64,000 bases of DNA from Saccostrea cucullata. Its lineage: Eukaryota. A program made the position numbers and the translations under genes. Location of the stretch: positions 186,001 to 250,000 of the forward strand of contig NW_026933222.1 of NCBI RefSeq assembly GCF_032062105.1, given 5' to 3'. The notes beneath the pieces were generated by a model. The model was given only the letters and a program-made list of their open reading frames with translations. It searched no databases and had not been told where the DNA came from. Shown piece after piece: positions 8,927 through 58,623 of the stretch; positions within the stretch are counted from its first letter, which is position 1; every line of letters begins with the position of its first letter.

Positions 8927-9261
8927 TTTTTATACCCCCGTAATCGAAAATTCGGGGGTATATAGTTTTTGCCCTGTCCGCCCGTCTGTCTGTCTGTCTG
9001 TCAGCAAAAACTTTAACCTTGTCCATAACTGTTGAGTGGGTGGGACTAGAGCTTTCATTGCATGGGTTAAAAACAGTTCACCTTTTGACCTTGACCTTAA
9101 AGTTTGGTCCACTTTAAAAAAAAAAACTTTAACCTTGACCATAACTTTTGAACCGTTAGTACTAGGGCTTCATATTTCAAAGGTGTATTCTTTGTGAGAA
9201 GGCCTACCTTTGGGTACCAACAACTTTGACCTTGGAGTTTAACTTACATTTGAGAAATTTC
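8927..9261 (+). mobile_element. Helentron-associated non-autonomous element (HINE/DINE-like), left part; right part at 21132-21240, split by the Gypsy insertion
   Basis: T-run start, hairpin TATACCCCCG..CGGGGGTATA, (GTCT/GTCC)n microsatellite, TGACCT-rich core. Terminal hairpin GTGTTTCACAAACAC at ~21216-21230. Confidence 0.7.
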
Positions 9262-9961
9262 TGTAACGTGCCCGAGGTATGAGGCTTATGTAATTTGATC
9301 AAATCTCCAATGAAGGAGATATATTTCATTGTAACCAATATATATGGTATTTCCTGGTAATTTGTTAATTGGTAATCCTTGTTGATTTGGTAAATAAATC
9401 CCTGTGTTGGTCAGTAAAATATTGCATTGCAGAGACAAACAAGAGCACAACATAAGATTATGTAAATTTCAACAATGATTTAATTAACGTAATAAATGTA
9501 ATACAGATGGCTGGATAACCAAATAATCAAACAATGGTGATGTAATACATTTGGTCAGATCGGACGTCACATATTATGATTTGGTCACGTTTTATGATTT
9601 GGTAACGCTATTATGATTTGGTAAAATGATGACTGTTGATTTTCCGTAATAAATCAATTTGGTCAAATGTAAACAATGGTAAAACTTCGTAGAGACTGTT
9701 GAATTCCTTAATAAATCTATTTGGTCAATATAATCTATAGTAAAAACTCCCCAACCGTTAGTTATATCAGTATTTATGTACAATTTCTATGAAAGTTGTT
9801 GAGCAGACGTTCTGCAGAGTCAAACTGAAACTTCAGCGTCCGTGGCGACGCTTATATAGGGTAAACTACCGGACATGCGCAGTGCGCTTTACCTAACCAA
9901 AAGGGAAAGTATAGACCAAAATGGCAGACGATACTAACAACATCGCCGAAGTGGGACAAAC

Positions 9962-12500
9962 GAATCCGGGATGTTTCGCGCCGATTCTGTTTCGCACTGA
10001 GATGGTTCGCGCCAGGATGATTCGCGCCGATATCGGTGCGAAACATCTCCCCCTCTTTTTTTAATATTTCATTTATAATGTAATAAATTAAGATCATTTA
10101 TTAAATCATAGATATAAATATGTGTTGTATGCTCAAAATCATGACTTTATAATATGCGGTGCCACAGGTAACGGATCGTAAATGTTAATATTGTGCCCGT
10201 TTGCTGAGCGTGTGTGTTCAACTATTTAATTGTAATTAGTTGGAGATCAAAAGGTGAGAATTATTTCATTACAGCAATTATAAAGTCGTACAGCAATTAT
10301 CTGCGAAAGCTTGAAAACATATAATTTGTGTTACTGAGAACATGTGTATAGAATAATTCACCAGGATGAGCTTAACATATTTTATTATTAATTTTGATAA
10401 ACTAGGCTTTATAAACGACAAATTATTTTTTCTTTCATCTCTATATTTCTCTACATCAATATTAATTTACAAGTGAACCATCTTTTTTTACGTCGTACGG
10501 TACTCCTCTTCCTATATTAATTTAATACATCACAGGAGCCAGAAAACAATTTATTTCATTCAAAAACCTAATTGTTTTCATTTAAACAAATCAATAAAAT
10601 ATTGTACTTTCATGTCAATATGTTTCAAAATTCATGAGATCAGGTTCTATAGTTTTAAATCCGAAATTAAAGTATTTTTGTGGGAAACTATATTAAAATA
10701 TACATGGACAAAAAAAGGGGGGCAGACAAACTTTGCGCACATGTAGTAACATAGAAACGCTGAAATAAAATTTGAAAGAATTATGCTTATGCAGAAGGAA
10801 ATCCAGTCAAAGCGCCCCCTAATAAAACCGTCCCGGTCAAAGCGTCCCATGATTTTGGTCAAAGCGTCCCCTTTATTTGGTCAAAGCGTCCCCTAATTTT
10901 GGTCAAAGCGCCCTTTATAGAATTTTACAGTAAAATGATGTTACAAAACCGCCCCAAAATATTGGTCAAAGCGTCCCCGGATTTTGGTCAAAGCGTCCCC
11001 GGATTTTGGTCAAAGCGCCCCGTACAGTAAAATGATGTTACAAAACCGCCCCCAAATATTGGTCAAAGCATCCCCTGATTTGGTCAAAGCGCCCCTTAAC
11101 ATTTTTTTCTTAAGAAAAATCGTCTGGGAAGCAATGGTCAAAACGTCCCCGATTTTGGTCAAAGCGTCCCCTGATTTTGGTTAAGGCACCCCCTAATATA
11201 TTTTTACAAACATGTTACGGAATAAAACTGTTTTGTATTTATAATTTTATCATTGTTTCGCAGTTAATTCTATAGGAGGCGCTTTGACCAAAATCAGGGG
11301 ACATTTTGACAATTACTTTGGGATCGACTCGAAACGCTTTTTTCCCTGTAAAAATATATAAGGGGGCGCTTTGACCAAAACCAGGGGACGCTTTGACCAT
11401 TTCTTGGGGACAGTAAAGATTGTTTCTATAAATATATTTTTTTCTGTAAAAATATGTAATTGTTAGGGGGCGCTTTGACCAAAATCAGGGGACGTTTTGA
11501 CTAAAATCAGGCGACGTTTTGACCATTATCATGATTATTTGGGGGCGATATTTTTTCTATAAAAATATGTTAGGGGGCGCCTTGACTAAAATCAGGGGAC
11601 GCTTTGACCATTATTTGGGGGCGATATTTTTCTATATAAATATGTAAGGGGGCGCTTTGACCCAAATCAGGGGACGCTTTGACAAATATTTGGGGGCGGT
11701 ATTTTTTCTATAAATTATGTTAGGGGGCGCTTTGACTTAAATTAGGGGACGCTTTGACCAACATCTGGGGGGAGGTATTTTTTATATAAAAGTATGTTAG
11801 GGGGCGCTTTGACCATAATCAGGGGGCGCTTTGACTAAAATCAGGGGACGCTTTGACTAAAGTTAGGGGACACTTTGACCGGGACGTTTTAATTAGGGGG
11901 CACTTTGACTGGGTCCCTGCAGAAGGGATATTTGATTTATACAATCTACCGGTACATCACCAACTTTTTTTTTATAGGTGCATAGACACAGATCTGAAGT
12001 AAATATATTCTTAAATATTCAAAATTGAAGTTTCAATGAATTTTACATGAAATAAGATTTTTTTTTCCATTTATTTTTATTTGAAATAATGTTAAGTCTC
12101 CAAATTTTGATTCTCCAAGCCAGCAAATTTACGTTGATAAGTTCCCCAAGCCGGCAATGATTACAGAATTACTTAATTAGATGGCGGTATGCTAAAGTAA
12201 CTACTATAAACATAATTATCAGAGTGTAAAAATAATATACAATTAGACTTAGTACTTTTAATAAACTTCTACAATTAAAATATAAACTAATATTCTACAA
12301 AATTTCGATACTTACATCAATATTCACAGATATTATAATTTATTATTTTTTTAATTCTTTTTCAAAATGAACGAAATAAAAAGCATACATTTTATGTTCT
12401 GGGAGCGAAACATCGCGGGGCGAACCATCTCAGCGCGAAACAGAATGGGCGCGAAACATCGCGGTGCGAACCATGCATCGGCGCGAAACATCCCGTTACC
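9962..12500. mobile_element. Non-autonomous DNA transposon with 8-bp TSD (MULE-like, uncertain), inserted in the left LTR
   Basis: TSD GGACAAAC at 9954-9961 and 12501-12508; the intact LTR has one copy. TIR core CGGGATGTTTCGCGCCGAT; subterminal TTCGCGCC repeats. Confidence 0.9.
10798..11917. mobile_element. Foldback-type non-autonomous transposon with 8-bp TSD, nested in the previous element
   Basis: TSD TGCAGAAG at 10790-10797 and 11918-11925. TIR core CCAGTCAAAGYGCCCCCTAAT. Inverted arrays of GGTCAAAGCGTCCCC on the left and GGGGACGCTTTGACC on the right. Confidence 0.9.
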
Positions 12501-13064
12501 GGACAAACCATGAAAAATACGAACAATGTGACGCCGAATCGTAAAACAAATACATAGTAATAAACAATGAAGGTAAGTTGCATAAAAATGTACAATACAA
12601 GTTGCGTATAAGTTAACAATAATAAAATAATGACGTTCGAGGACGGAGAACAATAACCTAAACCCCCCTTGTAAATTAGAATCTTCCGAATCGCCATGAC
12701 CAAAAAGGAAAACAACGTGATCGACAGACACACATGAAAAACGGTATTTACGATCAATTTAAACAATGTACTGTAAGTAAAATGAAATAAACATTCATAA
12801 TAAATACTGTTTCAATCATAAGAGTCCATAATTTTACGTATCAGTCCATATTTCCTCCGTGGTAAACTTGGTCATTTACCAAACATGAAAGTGTAGGATT
12901 TACCAAACATGAAATAATAGGAATTACCAAACATCGTTTTATAGTACACTTGGTAATATTTACAGTTCAAATATAATTGCTGTAAGAGAAATCATGTACA
13001 AATAATGATTACAAACTAATTATACACATATGACATATAGGGGGGGGGGTCTCAAAACACAAAT

Positions 13065-19835: not shown

Positions 19836-19853
19836 ATCCCACCGCTGCCACCA
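19836..19853 (-). promoter_or_regulatory. Primer binding site complementary to the 3' end of tRNA-Leu
   Basis: Minus strand TGGTGGCAGCGGTGGGAT, 6 nt from the LTR; the plus strand reads ATCCCACCGCTGCCACCA, like a tRNA-Leu 3' end with CCA. Confidence 0.85.
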
Positions 19854-19859
19854 AATTTC

Positions 19860-21131
19860 TGTAACGTGCCCGAAGTATGAGGCTTATGTAATTTGATCAA
19901 ATCTCCAATGAAGGAGATATATTTCATTGTAACCAATATATATGGTATTTCCTGGTAATTTGTTAATTGGTAATCCTTGTTGATTTGGTAAATAAATCCC
20001 TGTGTTGGTCAGTAAAATATTGCATTGCAGAGACAAACAAGAGCACAACATAAGATTATGTAAATTTCAACAATGATTTAATTAACGTAATAAATGTAAT
20101 ACAGATGTCTGGATAACCAATTAAATAATCAAACAATGGTGATGTAATACATTTGGTCAGATCGGACGTCACATATTATGATTTGGTCACGTTTTATGAT
20201 TTGGTAACGCTATTATGATTTGGTAAAATGATGACTATTGATTTTCCGTAATAAATCAATTTGGTCAAATGTAAACAATGGTAAAACTTCGTAGAGACTG
20301 TTGAATTCCTTAATAAATCTATTTGGTCAATATAATCTATAGTAAAAACTCCCCAACCGTTAGTTATATCAGTATTTATGTACAATTTCTATGAAAGTTG
20401 TTGAGCAGACGTTCTGCAGAGTCAAACTGAAACTTCAGCGTCCGTGGCGACGCTTATATAGGGTAAACTACCGGACATGCGCAGTGCGCTTTACCTAACC
20501 AAAAGGGAAAGTATAGACCAAAATGGCAGACGATACTAACAACATCGCCGAAGTGGGACAAACCATGAAAAATACGAACAATGTGACGCCGAATCGTAAA
20601 ACAAATACATAGTAATAAACAATGAAGGTAAGTTGCATAAAAATGTACAATACAAGTTGCGTATAAGTTAACAATAATAAAATAATGACGTTCGAGGACG
20701 GAGAACAATAACCTAAACCCCCCTTGTAAATTAGAATCTTCCGAATCGCCATGACCAAAAAGGAAAACAACGTGATCGACAGACACACATGAAAAACGGT
20801 ATTTACGATCAATTTAAACAATGTACTGTAAGTAAAATGAAATAAACATTCATAATAAATACTGTTTCAATCATAAGAGTCCATAATTTTACGTATCAGT
20901 CCATATTTCCTCCGTGGTAAACTTGGTCATTTACCAAACATGAAAGTGTAGGATTTACCAAACATGAAATAACAGGAAGTACCAAACATCGTTTTATAGT
21001 ACACTCTATAGTAATGTTTACAGTTCAAATATAATTGCTGTAAGAGAAATCATGTACAAATAATGATTACAAACTAATTATACACATATGACATATAGGG
21101 GGGGGGGGTCTCAAAACACAAATATTTCACA
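19860..21131 (-). repeat. 5' LTR of the Gypsy element
   Basis: Roughly 99% identical by eye to the joined segments 9262-9961, 12509-13064 and 15106-15113. Confidence 0.95.
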
Positions 21132-29900: not shown

Positions 29901-32466
29901 TTTGTTTTCATTTTTTCAGTGTTGCACTTTGATTGAAAACTCACCCGCAGCATTTCAACGATAACTTGTTTATCAGCATGATCTTGTGATAAAAGGTTGT
30001 CTGTAAAACAGAACGAAAACAATAAAACTTATTCGACAAACATATTTATATAAAAATTTAAAATGTTCTTTTAAAAGTAATTGAAGAAACGATTCAATTC
30101 ATTTTAAAAAATTGAAAGTTTCAAACAGATTAGTTGAACAAATATCTATAACCAAATATACAACTTCTAATGCACAGTTCCATCTATAACTCTATATAAC
30201 AGACTAAAACTATAGAAGTACAACTTGGAATGAAATCTAAATTAAACAAAACACAGATTTTGCAAAATTTATTGAAATTCGTAACATCATCCTTTGATAA
30301 GTCATTTTTCGTAAATATGTGTTAATCTAATGCAGTTCTAGTGTAATCATGTTTTTCAAGTGTATTATTGAAATATGATTGAATATCAAAAACCGTGCCA
30401 TATGATATATTAGTTCAAGCAATTTAATTTACAACGATGAAAAATTTACATTGCAAGCATTGAAATCGCCCATTTTTCACCATAAAAAAATAACAGGGGG
30501 CTGCCATAATACTGTAAAGTAAAATGTTTCATATCAAAATCTCTTTCTGATTAGCAAAGAAGGGTGGGAAAAAAGAAAAATGAAACAAAAAATCACTCCA
30601 CTTTAGAAAAGAAGGCATTTAACAGACCGGGATAGGGAAGGGCAAGAGAAAATATTTTGGTGTTAACTCATGGATTTGCTATTTTTAAAAAAAAAAAGAG
30701 AGAAATGTGAGGGGAAAAAAAATCATCGTACACTTGGTTTCATTATATCATTTTCTGGATAATATTTACATATAGCTATTTGCAAAACAGAGAGGTCTTT
30801 TGGACACCTCCTAAATCCGCAAACGATTTGAGCCTTTTTTAAAATTATTTTCGGAATGAGTGGTCTAGACAAAGTGAAACACAAAGAGAGAAACACAATG
30901 AATGGTGGAGAGTTATAAAAGAGAAAACTACAAAACACAGAAATATTGAACCTCTGTCTGCCCTGCTGACTGGAATATATGTAAAGAGTGTGTTAACTGG
31001 ATAATGATAAACTAAATACGTGTATTATTGCTGCGTAAACTTATTTACCTGACCCCACTAACGAAAAAATAAAATACACAACAATATTAGATGTGACAAG
31101 TACATATATCTAAATACAATTCTGTCATAATATACTGTAGATTCCTAAATATACGCATGGAATTAATTATCGCGTCTTTTCCCTCGAAACACCACACGCA
31201 AAATAAAATTACTTGCCTTTATTTTTATGGTGCTGAAATTCATGTAAATTCTCTTGATCAGCCGTCCATTCGCGAGTTATTATTCTCGATCGCGAGTTGA
31301 CGTTGAAGAGACTTTTCGCGATAATACGTACCAGCGAAAAATAAGGAATCTACAGTAAAGTATGTACAAAGACAAAGTCATAGAACTCTCAGGGATTTAC
31401 ATTGTTGGAAGATATAAGTAGTGTAGTGAATCATGAATTTTTGTCCTTCTTTCTTTTCTTTTTTTTCCCCTTGAGATTTGGTCTGATGACCTTCGTAAAA
31501 ACAATAGGACATCAAACAAAATATGTTTATTGTATTTAGTTTTCCAAGAAGTAGCGTTTTGGAGAAACTTTTAACAGATCAAATGCCCCTTGGAACCGTT
31601 ACCCTGTCCAAACTCGAAAATCCTATTTCATGAGGTGGGTATGGGTTTTGATTTTTCTGTAACATTTTGGTAAATATTGTTTTTAAATGCTGGAATTTGT
31701 CTGTCTTCTTTAAAGAAATTGTATGTTATTCAATTTATACTGCATGCAAGTTCTTATCTCTCCTTCATTTTCAGAGAAGAAGTACAGACTTACCAACTTC
31801 TAATCCTGTTTCGTCGTCTACGGATGCAGATCCAAAGTAATCTTTGTCTAGAATGTAAGCGAAAATGACTAAAATAGGGAACATTAAGAGCGTAACGATG
31901 GCCTCCCACAGGTCCACAAAGTCCGGAGTGTTCACCATTAGAATTATTATAAGCCAGACGTAGGCCAACACAGAAAACACAGCGGTGATGGCGAACACCT
32001 TCAACTTTCTGATCCGCCTAGTTTCATTTGCGGGGATCGCAAAGACGCATACTCCACAGATGACCATGAGGTTAAATGCTGCTGACCCCACGACAGTACT
32101 GGGACCTAACTCTCCAGCTTTGAAATCATTGAATACAATTTCAATGATGGAAAGTAGAATTTCTGGAGCGCTAGAGCCGAGGGCCATAAGAGTAAGGTTG
32201 GCTACAGTGCCATTCCAGCGCTTCACTTCTACTGTTCTGTAACCACTCTCGCTGTCGTCTGGAATTTTCACTTCCTGTGTAAAACTTGTAATGGTTGAGA
32301 TGGCTGCCATGAAAATGTCTGCTATGATGGAAATGGCCATAAAGCTCCATAGTAGTCCCACTAGATATACAGTGGCCCGGGCACCAATGGGCCACGTAGC
32401 TTCACTCACGATGGGTAACAGTAGCCCTTCATCTGAGCACGTGTAGGACGTGGGGCAAGTCGACAT
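26955..32466 (-). CDS. NCX: Na+/Ca2+ exchanger paralog B, complete, ~799 aa. Exons 32466-31794, 30000-29945, 29821-29654, 29445-29261, 29114-28885, 28633-28401, 28285-28180, 28073-27895, 27785-27456, 27194-26955
   Basis: alpha-1 ANLTLMALGSSAPE, two Calx-beta domains (DDNVWEPDE; IKDDLEFEKDE), alpha-2 ALGTSLPDLFAS and GNVTGSNSVNVFLG, C-terminal GNAELGGP. All exon phases join in frame (2400 nt). Confidence 0.95.
31132..31357. mobile_element. TA-flanked MITE (CTGTA..TACAG termini)
   Basis: TACTGTAGATTCCT at the left end and AGGAATCTACAGTA at the right end. Confidence 0.75.
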
Positions 32467-32598
32467 TGTTGCTTATTTTTGTATGTAAAATCACCACCTA
32501 CAGTATAAAAGAAACAAAATTATTGCCAAATTTATTCTTGAATAAATTGAATAAAACAATCCATCCAATCATTTACAAAGAGGGATTAAATTTTGCTG

Positions 32599-32908
32599 GT
32601 CGCGACGCCCGCGTGGCGCAGTGGTTAGAGCGTCTGTTCTAGAGTCGCTAAGTAAGGAGTTGATCCCTACGTCGCGGGTTCGAATCCCACTGTGGGACGT
32701 GGAGACGGTCCTTTGGATGAATCCGTATAAACCGAGGTCCCATGTCGCAGTAGGTGCTGGCGCAAAAAAGATCCCTCCCTGCTCAATGGCCGTGATTGCC
32801 GAGTATAAGCCAAAATTTGTAGCTCTCCACCGGGAAGTGTTGGCGTCTACATATGAGTGAAAATTTCTCGAGAGGGACGTTACACAACATACAATCAATC
32901 AATCAGTC
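32599..32908 (+). mobile_element. tRNA-derived SINE
   Basis: A box TGGCGCAGTGG, B box GGTTCGAATCC, (CAAT)n tail, 10-bp TSD AATTTTGCTG at 32589-32598 and 32909-32918. Confidence 0.9.
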
Positions 32909-33844
32909 AATTTTGCTGCAAAGCTAAGTATTATTGTGTGAAATCGTTTTTCTTCTAGATTACTCCTTTGATGGCATAGTTGTCTTCAATACAATGTACT
33001 TGCATATATTTGCTACCCGGTAGTACTGGTCTAAAATACTTTGTATATTTTTTATTGATCAGTTTGTGGGGGGGGGGGGGGTTTGATTTTTGTAAAATTA
33101 TTTCTTAAAAAATAATATATAGTTGATAGTACAACATTTCACTGAGAGCGCAAACACACAGAGGCTCTACAATTGCAAGGTCGAAAACAAAAGAATCAAG
33201 TGATAGTTGTGAAAGTTCATTGAGTCCTTTGATTTAAAATTCTTTTGCAGTGCATTTAAAGTTTATCAATGAACTAAAGGTTTTTTTCGATTGCAAAACA
33301 AAGACACGTGCAATGACTACTCCTACAAGTAAGAGCCTCGGTTAACGTCCCTATGCTCCTTATATAACGCGGCGCCAAGTCAAAAGTATCTCGCCGTGAA
33401 CCTCTAGCATGCTGGAGTAGTGCAATGACATGATCTTCGGTTTTATCAAACCTTTTGTTTCATATTACTATTGTTATTAGTATTATTATAATTAAATGTC
33501 TTTTTTTTCTTGTCTATTTTGAGGCTTTATTTGTGTTTGTATATTTGTATGCTTGTACCAGGGATCTAGTAATACAAAGAATCAAATTGCCTAATTTCTT
33601 GATTTCTTGTCATAAGGCAGATTAATTTGCCCTTTTACCAAATTAATCTCATTTAATTGACGGAAGCACACAGATAATATGGTTAAAACTAATAATGGTA
33701 CGAATTGGCAAAATCGAAGTCATCTTTGTACGAGTTAATTAGTGTGTATCACTTCCGCTTCCGCCACTAAGAAAAAGAGCGCGGCAAAGGAAACCTCCAT
33801 TAAAATTATTATCGAAACAATCTGCACAAACCAATCGCCGGAAA

Positions 33845-34912
33845 ATGCCGCCAGTGAGAAGTAAAGTAACCACGCGGTCAAGGAAGGACCGGGACCGAAG
33901 TTTCGTGTCACCAGGCAGAGGGCGAGGGATCCGGAGGCGACCCAACCATCCCAATCGGCCCCCGCACGAAGTCCCACCAAACACAAGACCATCACAAAGG
34001 GGAAACCCGGCCAGGAGGCCAACCACACCAACGCAACCAGCCACAGTAACGGTGGCGGACCCCATGCTTCACACTGCAGATATCTCAGAGGGCCTGGACG
34101 AGGCCGAGACCTCGAGTAACACGGGTGAGTTAAATATTTTGAGCCTCCCCACAGCAAACGATTTATCTTTTAACACAATCAATGAGGAATTCGACGGCCC
34201 CCCTTTTAACATCTCAGACTACCAACCGGCCCAGACCCCTAGCTGTATAGACCCTATTAGCGCCCACGTCCCCCAAAAAATCAAGCGAAAGATTTGGGAG
34301 GGAAAATTTATTGATCTATCAATAGTATTAAAATCGGCGCGGGAAATCTCAGACCACTTAGATACACAAGGCCAAATACAAATACGTAATGGCACAATGT
34401 GCCTTGTTAAGCAAAAAATGCGCACCTTTTTGTCAATTGACAAATGGACGTCGGCCTTCCTCATCTTTACAAGTATAATGTTAGAAAAATACAGAGCAAG
34501 AGCCCAAGAATTTCTGAAATATATGAGGGACATAAGAATGGCTGCTGATAGATCTGGGAACGGTTGGTTCACCTATGATGAACAATTTAGGCTGCGCAAA
34601 GTAACTGACCCTCATTCATCTTGGGGTATCATAAATTCTGAACTCTGGTTGATACACGTTACAAACAACTATGTTACACAGGCCCAAGGAAATCCCATAT
34701 CCCCCTCACAAAATTCCTACCCTCATCACAAACAGTCCAACATTTCAATGGCTGAGAAAAATGCAAACTTCACATCAAATCGTTACTGCTATGATTTTAA
34801 TTCAGGCAAGTCATGTAAATTTTACCCAAATTGCAGGTTTGTCCACTCGTGCGATTCCTGTGGTGGATCACACCCCTCAATCAAATGCAGTAATAGAAAC
34901 GCCAAATTCTAA
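33845..34912 (+). CDS. Ngaro/DIRS Gag-like ORF1 (355 aa)
   Basis: KIWEGKFIDL, WTSAFLIF, GWFTYDEQFR, W..INSELW and C-terminal CYDFNSGKSC..C...H.CDSCGGSH....C, typical of DIRS/Ngaro ORF1. Confidence 0.85.
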   Translation: MPPVRSKVTTRSRKDRDRSFVSPGRGRGIRRRPNHPNRPPHEVPPNTRPSQRGNPARRPTTPTQPATVTVADPMLHTADISEGLDEAETSSNTGELNILSLPTANDLSFNTINEEFDGPPFNISDYQPAQTPSCIDPISAHVPQKIKRKIWEGKFIDLSIVLKSAREISDHLDTQGQIQIRNGTMCLVKQKMRTFLSIDKWTSAFLIFTSIMLEKYRARAQEFLKYMRDIRMAADRSGNGWFTYDEQFRLRKVTDPHSSWGIINSELWLIHVTNNYVTQAQGNPISPSQNSYPHHKQSNISMAEKNANFTSNRYCYDFNSGKSCKFYPNCRFVHSCDSCGGSHPSIKCSNRNAKF

Positions 34913-35561
34913 CATGGATATCAACAAATTGATACTTTGTCTGCTTATCTACACACACCTATCTAAAATTAAGGACATTTGCTCACCTATGGGGGGGAGG
35001 GATAATTGAACGTTTATATAGTTAATTTTTAACCCATAACTAACCAACCCAAAGCATTGCAGGTCAAAAAATATGGATCATAGGGTCTTCCATTCCTTAC
35101 TGGGCAGGGGAAGCAGCCAAACACTGCCCAGGGGGACAAAGCCTGAACCTCCCTGCCACACTGCAATGGAGAACACACAGGGGGATGCACTGGCATGAAC
35201 TCGACCCAAAAATCCTACAGCTCATCAAACAAGAAGCACCCCCCCATTACTTAGTAATTCATTTAGGATCCAATGACTTGGTAACGCCAAACCTAACTAG
35301 CAAAAAATTCATACAAGAGATTCAGTGCAGCTTCCTGCGATATAATGCCCTTCTCCCAAATACAAAATTGGTGTGGTCACACATTCTACCACGCCGTTAT
35401 TGGCATGGAGCCCCATTGAACAGTGGAAAAAAGATTGACAAGAAACGCAAAAGAATTAACAAAAATATATCTAAATTTGTTACAGAATTAGGTGGGGGTG
35501 TTATTTCTCATGCAAACATATCCGTCGCTAACACAGACTTGTTCAGATTTGATGGAACCCA

Positions 35562-38500
35562 CAGGGCCTGGGAAGGGGCTGCGCCACGCGCCATATGCGC
35601 ATACTGCCGAAAAATGGGGCATTGTAATGATGGTGCGCTGCGCCATGCGGCGCATCCCCAAAAATAATGTAAAATGCGCACACGCATTATTTCTACCACG
35701 TGATTTTATCGAGATCGACGTTATCGGTAATCTTCATCAAAGTTAGATGGAATTGTCCGATGAGTACGGAATGATAGAATCGGAACGCCATTTTTAAATA
35801 CTGACATGCCGCCGGCAAAGAAAATGAAGTTTTCACTTCCACGTGGTCAAAAGACACTAACCTCCATGCAGTTTCCAACCGGCTTAAGTTCAGAAATAGA
35901 ATCGAGTCCAGAGGAAGGAGATACAGCAAATGTAAGAAATGCTGATGCAGAAATGAACAATGACGAGACCAGTAAAAGTGCTGAAAAAAGAAAATTTCAG
36001 TCATCGTGGCTTAAATTGTGGCCCTGGATGATTTACGAATCGGAAAAAATGTTTTGCACTATATGTAAAGAAAGGGGTAAAGACAATATATTTACGCAGG
36101 GTTGTGGTACATTTAAAACTTCGTCATTAAATAGACATGAAAATTCTCAAGATCACAGGGATAGTATACAAGCACAGTCACTTAGTAAAGAGATGAACGT
36201 AGCTGTAGCTAAAATGATGACAGACCACGATTCAGCTTTAATAAAGGCTATAAAGACTGTACATTGGCTTGCCATTGAGAATTTACCACTGTCAAAATTC
36301 GAAAGTATGATGGATTTTCTTAAAGATGTAGGCACACCAAATCTGAATTTTTTACAAGTTGGAAATCGAATTGATTATCAGTCGTACTATTCAGCTAATG
36401 AATTTCTACATGCAATTAGTGATGTGATAGAAGAGAAAACAACTGAAAACCTACAGAAGTCACCATTTGTAACAATATATGCAGATGAAAGTACAGACAT
36501 TTGTAACAAGAAAAGAATGACAATGACAGCTAGGATAATTAACCCAGAAAATTCTAGAGCACAAACTGTATTTCTGAGAGACATTGAGTATGAGAATGGG
36601 ACAGGGGAGGGATTGACTTCAGAGATAATCAAGGAGTTGAATTTACGACACATATCGATATCAAAGGTCCTTGGTTTCGGATCAGATGGTGCATCAGTCA
36701 TGACGGGGTTAGATAAAGGTGTAAGTGGAAGACTGAAAGAATTGAATCCTCACATTTTAAACATTCATTGCATGGCACATAGATTAGCACTTTGCACTGC
36801 ACAAGCAGCAGAAGGAATCCCTGCTCTGAAAAGATACCAAGAGTTTATGACAAAATTATTCTATTATTTTAAAGTCTCAGCAGATAGGGAGAAGGAAGTT
36901 CACAAAGTTCAAGCTCTTTTGGATCATCCCATGCTGAAGTATAAAGAAATTCATGCTGTGCGCTGGCTCTCATTCTACGATGGATTAGAAACCATTTACA
37001 AAACTCTTGATCCTCTTTTAACTTACTTGCACAACCGAGAAGCCAAGAAAGACCCTAAAGCCAAAGGACTCCTAAAGCAAATGGCCACAACGCAATTCAT
37101 CTATATCACCTATCTAATGATGGATGTTCTTCCAATTGTAATGAGATTGTGTCTAACCTTTCAAAAGGATGACTTAGATATTGCTCGTGCTAAGGTACAT
37201 AATAAAATATTGTGCATTTTAATTTACAATACATATTACAAAAAAGCACAAATTGTAATTCTGTATAATTTTATTTATAAATCCACTTTTTTACAAGACG
37301 TTTTAAAATTAGATTTCAGTTGACTCCTGTCTGAGTGAGCTGGAGGCTTTCAAAGAAGGAAAAACTTTCCACACTACATTTGTTGAGCAGTTTGCTTCAG
37401 ATATTACAGAAGTTGATGACCATCCTGAATTCAAAGGACACAGAATTCACAAAGTTCCTGGTGCGAATTTCCAGTCACTTAAGAGCCAATTTATAAATAG
37501 TTTGGTCTCAAATATTAGGAAAAGGTAATTTATTTGGTTATTCCACTCCAGTCATAGACAATTACATACTGGTACACACTACTGTAATAGAAATATTTTT
37601 TTCTTCATTCTGTACATCAACAATAGACTAGACAGATAAGTTAGTTTTAAGAGAACCTACATTAATTGATTAATGTTATTGTTATTAAACAATACAAATT
37701 ATTTGAAAAAAATATCTTTGACTTCAGATTTCCACAGAAGTCCCTGATGGATGCCTTCTATGTCCTGTCCATGCGAGCCATTAATTTCAGTGATGTGGAG
37801 ACATATGGTATTGAAGAAATAAATGAACTTCTTGACTACTACGGAACTTCAAAAGTAACTATTTCATTCTTCAAAATAATTTTATTTGTCAATAAAAAGA
37901 TAATTTCAAATCAGTGGAAAAAAAAATATGTTCATATAAATATACTTACCTCTATTTAAATTGCAGTGTCACAAATCTGCCATCTCACAGCCGGTATTAT
38001 GTGCAGAAAAAGTTAGAAATCAGTGGATGTTGGCCAAGCAGATTGTCAAGTCTGCAAGATACCCAACAGACCAGATGCAAGAATTATGGGAACTACTCAC
38101 AAAACACCATAAAGAAGAATTGAATGAACTGATCAAGCTAGCACAGATTGCACTCACTTTACCCCTGCACACTGCAAGTTGTGAACGAGTGTTCTCCCAG
38201 CAAAACATTATTCTTACCAAGCAGAGAAATTCCTTGGCACCCAAAATTTCCGACCGACTCCTAAGAGTTCGATTAAACAAGCAAGAAACTATCAATTATG
38301 AAGATGTTTTGAAAAGATGGAATTCTTTAAAAAAGCGTATCATCTCTGCTCAGTAGTATCATATTGTTATGATATGTCAATAAAGCAATCCAATAATTTT
38401 TTTGTTTTATTTTATTTGCATTAATTTTATTCTCTGAGAAACAGAGATGTGCATAATCATAGCATTAACAGAATAAGTTCATAATATGACAATTTTTGAA

Positions 38501-38609
38501 AATGGCCCATTGTATTCTCATTCGGCCCCATAACTTTTAAAATGGCCCCATCATTTTAAGAAGAGGGGGGCCATTGGCCCTATCACTTACTTGTCCTTCC
38601 CAGGCACTG
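35562..38609 (+). mobile_element. Full-length hAT DNA transposon with 6-bp TSD
   Basis: TIRs CAGGGCCTGGGAAGG and (reverse complement) CAGTGCCTGGGAAGG; TSD AACCCA at 35556-35561 and 38610-38615; subterminal GGCCC(A/C) repeats. Confidence 0.95.
35806..38356 (+). CDS. hAT transposase (ZNF862-like), 705 aa. Exons 35806-37194, 37313-37524, 37728-37854, 37967-38356
   Basis: N-terminal zinc finger (FCTIC..RHE...H), ADESTD, GSDGASVM, HCMAH, RWLS, TASCERVFS. Three GT-AG introns join in frame (2118 nt); AATAAA at 38379. Confidence 0.9.
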
Positions 38610-41600
38610 AACCCACCTCTCCGAGCTGGGCAACAGAACCTTCTTAAATAATGTAAAAAGTGGTTTGTGGTTCCTTATTCAAGGGAAGGGGAAAGTATCC
38701 CCTAATATAAAGTAATGGAGGAACATCATATCGATGTCTATGGCGGGTCCGGGGGGATAAGTGGGAGGGTTGTGAACATATCTGGCTCGTTGTTTCCTGC
38801 CCAGCCAGCAGATAAGTTGGTGGGCACTTTGTTGGGTAGACAGGTTGTCTACAAAACATCCAACCTATGGCAATGTTTAACAAAAAGTAAAGTAAAATGT
38901 CAAGTAACAAGTTTTTCGATTGGGGTCTTTGCCAAGCCTGCAGGCCTGGGGCCCCCTCTACCTCTTGTAACAGGAGGGGAGGCTTAGTACTGGAGTACTT
39001 GGGTGTTAAAGTACTGCTGACCAGAAGCAATCTCAGGAAGCAGGGTATACAGATGTGCTTGCAACTCTCCCGGGCCCAAATGTCTAGTACCCAAATTTGG
39101 GATCCCAGGCACCTGTGACCAACACAGGGCCACTGGTTTTGCCCGGTACTCTTTAGTCGGTATGCCAGTTGTCCTTCCGGACCCTATTCTTTATTGTACA
39201 TCTATGCAATGCGGCCTATTAACGCCAACTCCCTTTTTGCCCATCACAGTTATGTATAACACAAGATTGTACATGTATCCTTTTTAAGTCTTTAATAAAT
39301 TTAATGAAAACCATCCAACTGTTGTCTATTGCAAAGTTGACACCAAGGAAAGGGAATAGAGACCTTATGAGCATAAGGAATCATGTAGCAATGCAGGTCA
39401 GGCCCCGCAGGGCAGCAATTACCTGACTGTTCAATTAAGGCAGATTAATTTGCCCTTTTACCAAATTAATCTCATTTAATTGACGGAAGCACACAGATAA
39501 TATGGTTAAAACTAATAATGGTACGAATTGGCAAAATCGAAGTCATCTTTGTACGAGTTAATTAGTGTGTATCACTTCCGCTTCCGCCACTAAGAAAAAG
39601 AGCGCGGCAAAGGAAACCTCCATTAAAATTATTACCCACCCACCCACCCCCTTCTAATAAGGGTAACTTTTATACTTATGTGAAATCGCATGCTTTTGGG
39701 GGGGTTGTTCTTTTTCGTGGTTCGTAAACTAGGGGTTGACATGGGTTTCTGGGGGGACTCCTCAGGCCTCAAATACAGCCAAAAATTGGAATGCCACAAA
39801 AGTTTGCTATTCCACAGTACTGAATCCACATGTCCCTATACACAATCCCATATATGAGATGTATCTCTAGAATTTATAGGTATATTGATATATATATACA
39901 TCCCAAACATACCGACAATATTAATATCATTAGACAATGCAACCATTGGCTAATGAAAATACCACCAAATTGCAGTAATCTGCTGTCAGAATTTTTTGCC
40001 TTTTTCAGACACCCAGCAACAAAGAGGGCCAACCAAAATCCAGCTCACAGTAATTGATGTTGAAAAAGGGAAGCCAATCCAATACCAGATCAAAGCCAGT
40101 CCAAAAAGTGATTCAGGACTGTGTCAGTGCGATTAGACTAATGTCAAGTGACAGTAATTATTATGTTTATCTCATAGCCTAATTAAATAGCCAAAATACA
40201 TAAGACCTATCAAAATCCTCGTCGCATTGTATTAAAGGGGGGTGGGTCCGGGGGGATAAGTGGGAGGGTTGTGAACATATCTGGCTCGTTGTTTCCTGCC
40301 CAGCCAGCAGATAAGTTGGTGGGCACTTTGTTGGGTAGACAGGTTGTCTACAAAACATCCAACCTATGGCAATGTTTAACAAAAAGTAAAGTAAAATGTC
40401 AAGTAACAAGTTTTTCGATTGGGGTCTTTGCCAAGCCTGCAGGCCTTCTGTCAATATGTGACCGTTTCAAAAGTAAATTCTAATACATGTATATTTTAAT
40501 TAATATTTATGTTGTTTTCTTATTGTTTTTCTACAAAAATGCAAAATTAAGACTTAAACAAAATATCCAGGTACATTTAAGTCATTTATATACATGTAAT
40601 TGCAAAAGCTATAAGAAGCTTACGATATTTCAAACATTTAAAAACTTGGGGTCAGTATAGAAGGTCTCGCGGCTAATGCATAATTCATTGTCTGGGCTTG
40701 TATATTATGGCCAACTAAATAAACTAAGATTTTGAAATAAATTCTTAACATTTCTCCCTCACCTTTAGGGTTTTAAAATGGGTGTTGACCTATATTTGAT
40801 TTATTTTTAGTGGTGTCATGGAGCGAAGCAATGATCGACGGTTTTACGTCACCAATACACAGAGGTTTTGCGTTCACGTCATCCGTTCTTGTTTTTTAAA
40901 TGCATTCACAAAATAGGTATTTTGCAACAAGGCTCCCCACACAACAGAAATCTTTCGTGTACTAAGTTTTTTAAATGACCGTTCAATAGGTATGGATTTT
41001 CTATAACCATTGATTGGCCAACTCTCTCTCTCTCTTTTATTGTCTAAGGAACTGATTTGAAAAGTAGAGACTGAAACCGATCCAATATTGTGTATATAAA
41101 GCAATTAGCTGCTTGTATTACTAGCTAATAAAATATCAGTAAATAGTAATGAAACTTTTCTTAAAAAAATCTTTTACATGTATAAGAAATGAAATAGCCA
41201 GTGATTCGTACCTGATCAAACTAATCAATTTCATCATCTTGGAATTAAAAAAACCCATAATAGGGTCATTTCCTTTTAATTTGAAATTATATTATGGAAG
41301 TATAATTTATCCAGGTACCCCTTGTAAGCAATGGTAATATATTTTATCCAAGCATTAGTTTATATTATTTGTAGATCATTCTGTTGTGTAAATCAGGTTT
41401 TCTTGTGTTGAATAATTTATCGTAATATCGTCGATAAATCCAACAGGCTGAACCAAACATGACAATGTGGGCATGAAATAATCAAAATATAATGAGGCTT
41501 AGGTATCAATGAAAATGAGTTTATGCTGCAACACTCGCTTTTAGAAGATTCCATTGAGTTAGAAGTGATAAAATATTGATTGCGGTGTTTTAATAACCCA

Positions 41601-54065: not shown

Positions 54066-54309
54066 AGTAAATTCAAAATATGCAACAAGACAGAAGAAGC
54101 TGACCCTTCTCCAATGGGAGATAATCAAGGAACCGTAAAATAACTGTTGGGTCTTTAAAAATCTTCTCAAGAACCACTGGCCCCAAACAACTTATGTGGA
54201 AGCTCTCTGAGGTAGTATTAATTGATTCTAAATTGTTCAAATATTAATTACTCACGAAGGAAAACATAGGGCCGCAATATAGAATAAAATTTAACAGTAA
54301 GTTTTAGTT

Positions 54310-55565
54310 TTTATTAGCTCTACTGGTCAGAGACCAGAAGAGCTTATGCGATAGTAATGCGTCCGGCGTCCGTCCGTCCGTCCGTCTGTCTAGCTGTCCG
54401 TCTGTCCGTCTGTCTGTAAACAATTTTTCAAAATGCTACTCCTCCTACAGTTTTGATCTAATTTCAATATAACTTGGCACACAAGTAGACTACACTAAGA
54501 TACATAATTCTGTGTATCGGTTTTTGATTTCGATGAACGGTGTTGCCGTGGTTACTAAAAATAGAAATTTCTGTGAAATTCTTTCAAAACGCTACTTCTC
54601 CTACAGTTTTGGTCTGATTTCAGTATAACTTGGCACACAAGTAGACTACACTAAGATACATAATTCTGTATATCGGTTTTTGATTTTGATGAACGGTGTT
54701 GCCGTGGTTACTAAAAATAGAAATTTCTGTGAAATTCTTTCAAAATGCTACTCCTCCTACAGTTTTGGTTTGATTTCATTATAACTTGGCACACAAGTAG
54801 ACTACACTAAGATACATAATTCCATATATCGGTTTTTGATTTCGATGAACAGTGTTGCCGTGGTTACTAAAAATAGAAATTTCTGTGAAATCCTTTCAAA
54901 ATGCTACTCCTCCTACAGTTTTGGTCTGATTTCAGTATTACTTGGCAAACAAATAGAATACACTAAGATACATAATTCTGTGTATCGGTTTTTGATTTTG
55001 ATGAACGGTGTTGCCGTGGTTACTGAAAATAGAAATTTCTAGGAAATTGTTTCAAAATGCTACTCCTCCTACAATTTTGGTCTGATTTCAATATAACTTG
55101 GCACACAAGTAGACTACACTAAGATACATAATTCTGTTTATCGGTTTTTGATTTCGATGAACGTTGTTGCCGTGGTTACTAAAAATAGAAATATCTGTAA
55201 AATTGTTTCAAAATGCTACTCCTCCTACAGTTTTGGTCTGATTTCAATATAACTTGGCACATAAGTAGAATACACTAAGATACATAATTCTGTATATCGA
55301 ATTTTAATTTTGATGAACGGTGTTGCCGTGGTTACTAAAAATAGAAATGTCTGTAAAATTGTTTCAAAATGCTACTCCTCCTACAGTTTTGGTCTGATTT
55401 CAGTATAACTTGGCACACAAGTAGACTACACTAAGAACATAAAGAGACTTTATCAACGATCATTATTCTATTTAGTTTCAAATCCCAGCTGCTTAAGTAC
55501 TTTTCTCCTCCTTTGCTATAAGTTCAAACCAGTAGAGCTGCAGTCTCGACAGAGACTTCTGGTTC
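54310..55565 (+). mobile_element. HINE/Helentron non-autonomous element with ~6.5 x 156-bp tandem repeats
   Basis: Subterminal inverted repeat AGCTCTACTGG / CCAGTAGAGCT, (GTCC)n, repeat units ~156 bp apart from ~54426 to ~55362, 3' hairpin AGTCTC..GAGACT. Confidence 0.9.
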
Positions 55566-56596: not shown

Positions 56597-58571
56597 TCAT
56601 CTTTCAAATTCAGCATACAGTTCATCTATCACAGGCTGAAATGTCTTCCTCAGAACTGGTCTCTTGTTTTTAAAGGTGGGGGTCAGCAAGTTATTCTCAA
56701 GGGAAAATAGTTCGGGAAAAAGATGAATGTTTGCCACCTATAAAAGAAAATTTAATATGAGGCTGGCCTATAATGCACTCTTAGGTAACATTAATCTCTC
56801 TCTGAAATTAATGTTAAAGAGCACTTCCAGCGGGTCACATTCAAAGTCAAAAGTCATATACAGTACCAGCATAACTGTAACAGTGTCTGTAGACATGCTC
56901 CTCAGGAATTTTATATACTGTGAAATCAACAATTTTTGTGGGGGTTAAATTTTGTCGTTTTCAGGGTATGGAGACACCCATGAATTCATGTCCATCAAGA
57001 AATGTCAAATTTTATTTATATATCTATGCAACATCAACATATTCAAATCCCCACAAACCCATTTTTCCCTCAAACCTTAACAAGAGGCCCATGGGCCACA
57101 CCGCTCACCTGAGCACTATTGTAAAGTTTAAATCCTAAAGTTGTCCCATGACCAATCATGGCTTTGCTATTCTTGAGAAAAAGATTTTTTAAGAATTTTT
57201 TCTATATTTCTATGCAAAACTTTGGTCGGCCATTGTGACCCCGCCCTACCCCCGGGGGTCATGATATGAACAAACTTAAATCTACACTTCATGAGGATGC
57301 TTCCATATAAATATGATCAATTATAACTTTGCTATTCTTGAGAAGAAGATTTTTAAAGAATTTTCCTATATATTTCTATGTAAAACTTTGGTTGGCTATT
57401 TTGGCCCCGCCCTACCCCGGGAGTCATGATTTGAACAAACTTGAATCTACACTACCTGAGGATGCTTCCATATAAATATGATCAATTTTGGCTTTGTTAT
57501 TCTTCAGAAGAAGATTTTTAAAGAATTTTCCTACATATTTCTATGCAAAACTTTGGTCGGCCATTGTGGCCCCGCCCTACCCCCGGGGGTCATGATTTGA
57601 GCAGACTTAAATCTACACTACCTGAGGATGCTTCTATATAAATATGATCAATTATGGCTTTGCTATTCTTGAGAAGAAGATTTTTAAAGAATTTTCCTAT
57701 ATATTTCTATGCAAAACTTTGGTCGGCTATTGTGGCCCCGCCCTACCCCCGGGGGTCATGATTTGAACAAACTTGAATCTACACTACCTGAGGATGCTTC
57801 CAAATAAATATGATCAATTATGGTTTTGTTATTCTTGAGAAAAAGATTTTTTAAGAATTTTCCTATATATTTCTATGTAAAACTTTGGTTGGCCATTGTG
57901 GCCCCGCCCTACCCTCGGGGGCCATGATTTGAACAAAATTTAATCTACACTACCTGAGGATGCTTCCATAAAAATATGATCAATTATGGCTTTGCTATTC
58001 TTGAGAAGAAGATTTTTAAAGAATTTTCCTATATATTTCTATGCAAAACTTTGGTCGGCCATTGTGGCCCCGCCCTACCCCCGGGGGTCATGATTTGAAC
58101 ACACTTGAATCTACACTACCTGAGGATGCTTCCAAATAAATATGATCAATTATGGTTTTGTTATTCTTGAGAAGAAGATTTTTAAAGAATTTTCCTATAT
58201 ATTTCTATGCAAAACTTTGGTTGGCCATTGTGGCCCCGCCCTACCCTCGGGGGTCATAATTTGAACAAACTTAAATCTACACTACCTGAGGATGCTTCCA
58301 TATAAATATGATCAATTATGGCTTTGTTATTCTTGAGAAGAAGATTTTTAAAGAATTTTCCTATATATTTCAATGCAAAATTTTGGTCGGCCATTGTGGC
58401 TCTGCCCTACCCCCAGGGGTCATGATTTGAACAAACTTGAATCTACACTATGTAAGGATGTTTCCCCATAAGTTACATCTTTCCTGGCACAGTGGTTCTT
58501 GAGAAGAAGATTTTTAAAGTATACCACCAAATTTTCATTAATTCCCAATTATCTCCCCTTGAATGAGGGCT

Positions 58572-58623
<52 letters not shown>

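Follow-up and report, generated by a model that had tools for sequence, protein, structure and literature searches.

A predicted splice junction between the basic Gag N-terminus and the SGNH hydrolase of Ngaro-type retrotransposons

The hydrolase ORF of animal Ngaro elements is probably a 3′ exon, and no gene in its own right, that is spliced to a basic leader taken from the N-terminus of Gag, as judged from the splice-site sequences of one element and of its relatives. Overall, the feature is real and conserved at the level of sequence, with a strong predicted acceptor, a moderately supported donor and a putative function. In the proposed scheme the unspliced RNA would serve both as genome and as Gag message, and a fraction of the RNA would be spliced, with a donor in phase 1 closing the basic, low-complexity Gag N-terminus and a TTNCAG acceptor, also in phase 1, lying 5–11 nt before Block I of the hydrolase. 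Splicing would skip the Gag core, the reverse transcriptase/RNase H (RT/RH) and the tyrosine recombinase (YR), which in full-length relatives would all be held in a predicted intron of ~3.5 kb, and would give a product of ~260–310 aa consisting of the basic Gag leader and the SGNH esterase. That a leader–hydrolase junction is used in vivo appears very likely, and it is only slightly less likely that the donor is the one in the Gag leader.

Architecture of the element

The window, meaning the whole stretch of 64,000 nt of DNA that was analysed, contains a Ngaro-type element with the following features, given by position in the window.

33613..33811, plus strand: split direct repeat A1 at the 5′ terminus; its 199 nt match 39436–39634 at 100%
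33845..34912, plus strand: Gag-like ORF1 of 355 aa (open reading frame, 63 homologues, alignment)
33845..34124, plus strand: Arg/Pro-rich Gag leader of 93 codons plus 1 nt, the coding portion of predicted exon 1
34122..34130, plus strand: predicted splice donor CGG/GTGAGT, phase 1, reading G-E-L in the Gag frame (best of 47 GT sites)
34125..35062, plus strand: predicted intron, 938 nt in the window copy
34913..34966, plus strand: probable remnant of the pol start, ending H-T-P-I-stop, after which the internal deletion follows
35040..35044, plus strand: branch-point-like CTAAC, overlapping the in-frame TAA at 35041–35043
35057..35062, plus strand: predicted splice acceptor TTGCAG, phase 1, with the Block I Trp codon 11 nt downstream
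35063..35562, plus strand: 5′ part of the SGNH hydrolase exon, with Block I GSS, Block II RG, Block III GSND and Block V DGTH (alignment, PDB profile search, structural model)
35555..35562, plus strand: target-site duplication, left copy, GAACCCAC
35563..38608, plus strand: hAT DNA transposon with short terminal inverted repeats and a multi-exon transposase (PF05699, E = 7e-9; PF25431, E = 7e-16)
38609..38616, plus strand: target-site duplication, right copy
38617..38715, plus strand: last 32 codons of the SGNH hydrolase (38617–38712) and the stop (tblastn with P0002, P0011 and P0001 at 38611–38703)
38742..38947, plus strand: split direct repeat B1 (206 nt, 99.5% identical to B2)
39436..39634, plus strand: split direct repeat A2, identical to A1
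40241..40446, plus strand: split direct repeat B2, the 3′ end of the element and the pair of B1

The order A1 ... B1-A2-B2 gives the window copy split direct repeats of the Ngaro type, and the SGNH hydrolase is the final ORF ahead of B1. Split repeats are also found in PAT-like elements, from which Ngaro elements differ by RT phylogeny and by lacking a methyltransferase domain. Gag is composed of a basic N-terminus, a low-complexity linker, a conserved core (W..YDEQFR) and a C-terminal Cys/His finger. A Pfam search with it returned no family; the named ones among its 63 homologues belong to Mytilus, Ostrea and Magallana, which makes a mollusc host probable, and relatives of this Gag are located upstream of RT and YR. 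The window copy possesses neither an RT/RNase H ORF nor a YR ORF, and the gag stop is separated from the hydrolase by only 150 nt, showing that RT, RNase H and recombinase have been deleted. The window element is a non-autonomous deletion derivative of a Ngaro-type retrotransposon in which a hAT transposon subsequently interrupted the hydrolase, and the near-identity of its repeats suggests recent mobilisation in trans. No further copies of the element are present inside the 64,000 nt.

The segment at 34913–34966 resembles, by eye, the TPV/TPI/SPV motif of the pol starts in six related loci (L001–L006, see below) and in the protein P0001. A reading of this segment as the end of the recombinase was dropped in favour of a pol start, an identity that we infer only, since a tblastn comparison gave no significant match.

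The hAT transposon, flanked by an 8-bp duplication, inserted at the DGTH motif of the hydrolase, where it cuts off the last 32 codons. A protein of 292 aa had been predicted from the sequence; as the insertion splits the hydrolase, this length is valid for an uninterrupted element only, and the window frame as it stands would encode 294 aa with a foreign C-terminus, the final 34 residues being hAT-derived. The intact leader–hydrolase product is beyond the reach of the window copy, a point left unsaid in the earlier sequence-only reading.

Predicted splice sites in the window

All coordinates of the gag donor, the acceptor, the CTAAC, the stop, the phase and the missing ATG before the catalytic Ser were re-read and agree with those given in the earlier sequence-only reading of this DNA. 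From the gag ATG at 33845, the donor at 34124/34125 is reached after 280 coding nt (93 codons plus 1 nt, phase 1); TTGCAG ends at 35062, likewise in phase 1, and joining G to GT yields a Gly codon in frame. The hydrolase frame is closed upstream by the TAA at 35041–35043, and no Met is found between this stop and the GSS block.

On a scale built from approximate base frequencies, the donor at 34124/34125 scores 7.0 bits, the top value among 47 GT sites in gag and the 150 nt upstream; the runner-up scores 1.7, and three inferred donors in the adjoining hAT transposase score 0.5–3.4. In the window, the chance of finding an in-phase donor this strong within a leader of 420 nt is ~0.017, and that of a TTNCAG in phase no more than 30 nt from a fixed point is ~0.015. 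The pyrimidine tract is weak, with 9 pyrimidines in the 18 nt before the acceptor, and an out-of-phase AAAG is located 8 nt upstream of the acceptor.

The SGNH hydrolase domain

Block I (Ser) reads GSS, block II (Gly) RG, block III (Asn) GSND and block V (Asp-x-x-His) DGTH, and 23 aligned sequences show no variation at the catalytic positions of the last two (G69, N71, D72, D164 and H167). Structure prediction, a check named beforehand, returned an SGNH alpha/beta fold with a pLDDT of 93.6, which Foldseek matches best to sialate O-acetylesterase and TesA (TM 0.66–0.74). The top match of a PDB profile search was the esterase of zebrafish ZfL2-1 ORF1p (4C1B, E = 4.7e-6), which ranks 24th by fold comparison. 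The Pfam family Lipase_GDSL_2, searched with the 5′ part only, reached 16.8 bits (E = 0.01) against a gathering cut-off of 32.9. Active site and fold of the domain both look intact.

Related loci and hydrolase homologues

A scan of a genome collection with the Gag alignment yielded seven loci (L001–L007), which are apparently eukaryotic contigs binned into bacterial MAGs. RT/RH is present in L001–L006 and YR in L001 and L003–L007. L001, L003, L004 and L005 hold gag, RT/RH, YR and SGNH in that order, with the hydrolase after YR in all four loci that are long and intact enough; the sequences of L002 and L006 stop short of this, and L007 is degraded. Three of the four full-length loci come from one MAG, and the four are therefore not fully independent. 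Scanning the genome collection with the hydrolase alignment produced 51 pattern matches, none of which was confirmed, and a plasmid collection scanned with a hydrolase homologue gave no match.

From the 3784 representatives matched by a hydrolase profile, the best 150 were taken; together with earlier hits these made 177 proteins in addition to that of the window. Block I could be anchored in 105 of the 178; the other 73 start downstream, are multi-domain or lack the motif, and the mis-anchored P0051 was dropped.

Fusion-shaped proteins

Proteins with the predicted layout and size, a leader followed by the hydrolase, do exist, and in many families. In the set drawn from the best 150 of 3784 representatives, 11 GSS-type protein clusters consist of a low-complexity leader (55–135 aa) and the hydrolase, with overall lengths of 258–316 aa. 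The first 30 residues are basic in all 11 (net charge +4 to +12, Gag mean +6.8), and against a profile of the Gag N-terminus eight of the leaders score above 196 or more of their 200 shuffles, a result that may partly reflect just the placement of basic residues; three leaders are not clearly above shuffles (15, 16 and 47 of 200). In pairs of closely related enzymes from one family, one member has the leader and the other read-through sequence; they part at the predicted Gly in P0076/P0078 (97.9% identical) and P0138/P0158 (81.5% identical), and no more than a few residues from it in P0041/P0042 (98.9% identical). P0001, a Magallana gigas gene model, has a Gag-type N-terminus (GTPARAPG) at its start and the hydrolase at its end, with a pol-like piece between leader and enzyme; its alignment with the window Gag is not significant. 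Atlas clusters with representatives of 249, 292 and 333 aa have 54–76 members and include molluscs and chordates.

The fusion proteins may derive from transcripts or from ab initio models. In P0068, P0113, P0123, P0112 and P0226, pieces of YR, RNase H or the Gag core are joined to the same hydrolase start, which shows that gene predictors do invent upstream partners. None of 45 Gag leaders represents a same-family Gag for any of the fusion leaders (best leader BLAST E = 0.001), the whole-Gag profile matches the fusion leaders with iE values of 0.02–0.8 only, and 282 candidates include no direct leader–hydrolase fusion from the window's own family.

Conservation of the donor

A GTRAGT donor in phase 1 forces the peptide [GSRC][EK][SFCLYW] in the Gag frame, a pattern that was noted before the Gag search. 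Out of 64 Gag sequences, the 49 with a full basic N-terminus were kept and 15 were dropped, leaving 26 groups at 60% identity. When their whole N-terminal regions are covered, the tripeptide is found in 19 of the 26 groups against a shuffle mean of 8.7, with none of 2000 shuffles reaching 19, and three control patterns show no enrichment. Grouping at 50% identity gives five of seven groups against 1.8 (27 of 2000 shuffles), and G[EK][SFCLYW] alone, a pattern chosen post hoc, is found in 11 of the 26 groups against 2.7. Seven groups lack the tripeptide, and 10 of 18 G[EK]x cases are GES or GKS, possibly conserved at the protein level.

The donor signature is positioned at aa 42–99 in most Gag groups, and many Gag relatives possess G-E-[S/C/F/L] at the donor position. 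In the alignment, a prominent Gly column stands within a gap-rich, poorly conserved region and is followed by E-L, E-C, E-F or E-S in the closest relatives. Scoring every GT, which recovers a site in L002 that a pattern scan had missed, gave best phase-1 leader donors of 6.0, 3.7, 2.8, 1.9 and 0.4 bits in five loci, with no convincing leader donor in L004. We regard donor conservation as moderate, with apparent support in the subgroup of the window and uncertainty in the more distant groups. The expectation that the splice sites would be conserved in relatives has been borne out for the acceptor and its phase (see below) and is less clear for the donor, given the count of 19 in 26 groups and the case of L004.

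In another reading, the acceptor is real and a different donor is used, located in the A repeat or 5′ UTR, at the gag start or in the Gag core; the protein would then have a shorter or different N-terminus, and the GTGAGT at 34125 would serve a pol or YR junction. In L004 the top donors are those of the Gag core, at aa 152 and aa 188 (4.4 bits, both phase 1), L006 has a donor at aa 4, some gene models link Gag-core or pol pieces to the hydrolase, and the YR starts are also acceptor-like. A non-coding first exon, however, would leave the protein without an initiation codon, and there is no Met ahead of the catalytic Ser in the window, L001 or L004. The basic leaders of 64–126 aa in the 11 fusion clusters match the donor-signature positions in Gag. 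We consider this reading unlikely and prefer a donor in the Gag leader.

Conservation of the acceptor

Conservation of the acceptor and its phase across relatives had also been named beforehand as a check, and it is strong in the sequences compared. In all four full-length loci a phase-1 TTNCAG (TTACAG, TTACAG, TTGCAG and TTTCAG) precedes the Block I Trp codon by 5 nt, against a background of 0.010–0.020 per locus, and the stretch from the upstream stop to this codon contains no ATG in frame in any of them. CTAAC-like pentamers precede the acceptor in three of these four relatives. The enzymes of the four loci are 25–53% identical to each other and 31–35% identical to that of the window, and just 11–20 positions match among the loci in the 54 nt upstream of the acceptor hexamer.

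An imprint of the acceptor can be found in the hydrolase proteins. Short read-through N-termini are present in 34 proteins (window excluded; the set includes the best 150 of 3784), 19 of which have a Gly at −8 to −4. The residue before this Gly is NYA-codable in all 19 (background 0.53, p = 5e-6), and the residue one position further up is I, F, V, L or Y in 18 (background 0.40), according to binomial tests that ignore relatedness. This codon constraint is absent from the 37 long-leader proteins of the same best-150-of-3784 set (12 of 21 and 4 of 21, respectively). The codon imprint N-TT-N-YA-G is what would be expected of an acceptor that is read through in frame and is removed by splicing.

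Alternatively, the hydrolase could be translated from unspliced RNA by means of an internal promoter, reinitiation or internal entry, with a near-cognate codon or a strand-1 Met as the start, and the splice-like sites would be relics of a captured host exon. Two of the four loci, L003 and L005, have a Met within strand 1, 3–4 codons before the catalytic Ser, which counts against splicing; the ORFs of Xenopus Ngaro elements are all described as overlapping in the pertinent passages of PMC9210276; and many database hydrolases, among the matches listed, begin at or past Block I. No start is conserved, however, and unlike a relic, the acceptor and its phase persist across 25–53% protein identity where the neighbouring DNA has diverged. 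Read-through or frameshifting from YR was rejected as a source of the hydrolase, as the YR stop is 52–388 nt upstream, further stops lie in between and the two frames stand in no constant relation. Translation without splicing is, in our view, quite improbable.

That the window sites are chance matches and the fusion proteins artefacts of gene prediction is more improbable still: TTGCAG occurs 21 times and GT[AG]AGT 22 times on the plus strand of the window, and the fusion proteins may come from ab initio models, but the joint probability of the window sites is ~0.017 × 0.015, and for the acceptor, found in all four loci and imprinted in 19 of 19 proteins, a chance reading seems already largely refuted.

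Putative function and possible further junctions

Under the spliced reading, the leader might direct the enzyme to element RNA, to the Gag particle or to the nucleus. Acidic phospholipids might be bound or hydrolysed by the SGNH domain, allowing the particle to engage membranes, a role also proposed for the esterases of LINE ORF1p. Both the tethering and the lipid role are drawn solely by analogy with the ORF1p of the ZfL2-1 LINE, and we place them somewhat short of an even chance.

A wider scheme, which we put forward just as tentatively, would resemble the expression of complex retroviruses and have one Gag-leader donor serve several phase-1 acceptors, with the hydrolase, YR and perhaps pol sharing an RNA- or particle-targeting tag; as an accessory protein that engages membranes, the hydrolase would have arrived at the layout of LINE ORF1p by convergence, through splicing. 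All five loci with a YR 5′ end have a phase-1 YAG after pyrimidines, 2–14 codons past the opening of the YR frame, and at this site all five have CAG instead of CAA (product probability 0.013). The first Met of the YR frame is residue 28, 37, 83, 83 or beyond 100, leaving three of the five without a Met before residue 83. The YAG at the YR start overlaps the conserved S-R-L/F..Q end of RNase H, a possible explanation for it, and we treat it as a lead and not as a result. No shared acceptor emerges at the pol start: each locus has several phase-1 YAG, none of them clearly common, and a Met is present in three of six.

If the spliced reading is correct, the real hydrolase protein differs from the annotated one in being a basic Gag tag plus an esterase, a layout that matches LINE ORF1p, which gets there in a single ORF, and subgenomic splicing would be added to the recombinase retrotransposons. 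It would also supply a precise junction, the right biochemical construct and a single acceptor site bearing on the role of the enzyme in transposition. A ready-made phase-1 acceptor would favour exon capture, which would explain the domain being found in tandem in long host-like proteins.

Comparison with known systems

That Ngaro elements carry an SGNH ORF is already known, and the passages concerned in PMC9210276, PMC7192593 and PMC6681497 leave its function unproven. The Xenopus Ngaro-like elements DIRS-53_XT and DIRS-54_XT, as described in the corresponding part of PMC9210276, share the split repeats A1...B1 A2 B2 with the window element, and the order gag, RT/RH, YR, SGNH is common to Ngaro-like elements with an SGNH ORF, in the passages describing them, and to the relatives of the window element. 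The window copy differs from such elements in that RT/RH and YR are absent and a hAT transposon sits inside the hydrolase. Published accounts of Ngaro, in the passages dealing with the hydrolase, treat it as a separate ORF, whereas here it is a predicted spliced exon.

PMC9210276 does not mention splicing or introns, and we found no report of elements of the DIRS group splicing their own ORFs in the Ngaro and DIRS literature searched, although an earlier mention may exist. Splicing in the DIRS-related passages of PMC7192593 concerns reporter introns, another mention relates to a blot, and the passage at issue in PMC4495291 describes host exonisation of a DIRS1 gag; those of PMC8547959 and PMC4021074 hold nothing that bears on the splicing of DIRS-group ORFs. 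How the downstream ORFs of the DIRS group are translated is not stated in the passages of PMC9210276 and PMC6681497.

The SGNH domain is homologous to that of ORF1p in ZfL2-1, a LINE of the CR1 clade. The ZfL2-1 ORF1p esterase (4C1B) is active, binds acidic phospholipids and sits behind an arginine-rich motif, and in isolation it does not bind RNA; DIRS and Ngaro are unmentioned in that study (PMC3905857). The predicted product likewise has a basic, Arg-rich segment ahead of the esterase. In ZfL2-1, a non-LTR element, the esterase is part of one continuous ORF1 that includes a coiled coil; the window element, by contrast, has the context of a recombinase element (split repeats, gag, and YR in its relatives), and the Gag N-terminus would be joined by the predicted splicing.

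The env of the Drosophila errantivirus gypsy is made from a spliced subgenomic RNA, according to the relevant passage of PMC4276936. In gypsy and retroviruses env is the last ORF, and splicing of its message removes the ORFs in between; the predicted hydrolase RNA would likewise skip the ORFs between leader and enzyme. Some retroviral env messages retain a few gag codons. The proteins are of different kinds: env is a membrane fusion glycoprotein with a signal peptide and a transmembrane segment, whereas the predicted product has a soluble SGNH fold behind ~93 Gag residues, and by inspection the window leader is basic and hydrophilic and not of the signal-peptide/transmembrane glycoprotein type. 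The description “Env-like” in the sequence-only reading therefore suits the logic of expression, with the last ORF reached through predicted splicing, and does not extend to the protein, which has an SGNH fold and is not a fusion glycoprotein. A further likeness is to the Ty1/Copia group, where a spliced subgenomic RNA of Copia reportedly makes Gag alone, with host splicing yielding several proteins from one retrotransposon RNA. The assignment would be the other way round in the window element, whose unspliced RNA would make Gag and whose spliced RNA would make the accessory enzyme.

Sequence context of the retroelement

The Ngaro-type retroelement is situated about 1.1 kb from a sodium/calcium exchanger exon and on the opposite strand, and the feature with a tRNA-Arg-like head at 32607–32910 is probably a SINE. 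The hAT transposase carried in the hydrolase is apparently intact, with a coding region split by three probable introns. Elsewhere in the window, the inverted arms resemble a foldback or MITE element.

Features of the window
9255–9820 and 19853–20422, near-identical dispersed duplication of several hundred bases
10803–11912, long imperfect inverted arms composed of 22-nt sub-repeats
12501–13049 and 20556–21107, near-identical dispersed duplication of several hundred bases
31771–32469, exon of a sodium/calcium exchanger on the minus strand (PF01699, E = 1e-20)
32607–32910, tRNA-Arg-like head followed by a body with CAAT repeats at its end
35563–38608, hAT transposon, zinc finger of the C17orf113 type
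37195, 37525 and 37855, probable intron donors in the hAT transposase
54270–55505, tandem array, 156-nt period
57051–58619, tandem array, 166-nt period

Related elements and hydrolases

Ngaro-type gag was found on seven contigs (L001–L007), four of which hold complete elements; all are catalogued within bacterial MAG records, most likely through contamination of those assemblies by host DNA. At the 5′ end of the tyrosine recombinase frame, five of these loci have an acceptor-like YAG in phase 1 (L001:2827, L003:2763, L004:3494, L005:2328 and L006:3819) that overlaps the end of RNase H, and the recombinase of these loci often misses an early Met.

Among the database relatives of the hydrolase, twelve long proteins (P0034–P0036, P0038–P0040, P0047, P0072, P0075, P0091, P0117 and P0121) contain two to six tandem Ngaro-type SGNH domains joined by low-complexity linkers, with Block I, which bears the catalytic Ser, altered in several; they look like host genes assembled through repeated capture of the hydrolase exon. 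Long leaders of 200–430 aa precede the GHS-type hydrolases P0096, P0097, P0131, P0149, P0152, P0165 and P0167. A helix-like G..WL motif recurs at the N-terminus of several of these proteins, which possibly represent the same splice in a different host group.
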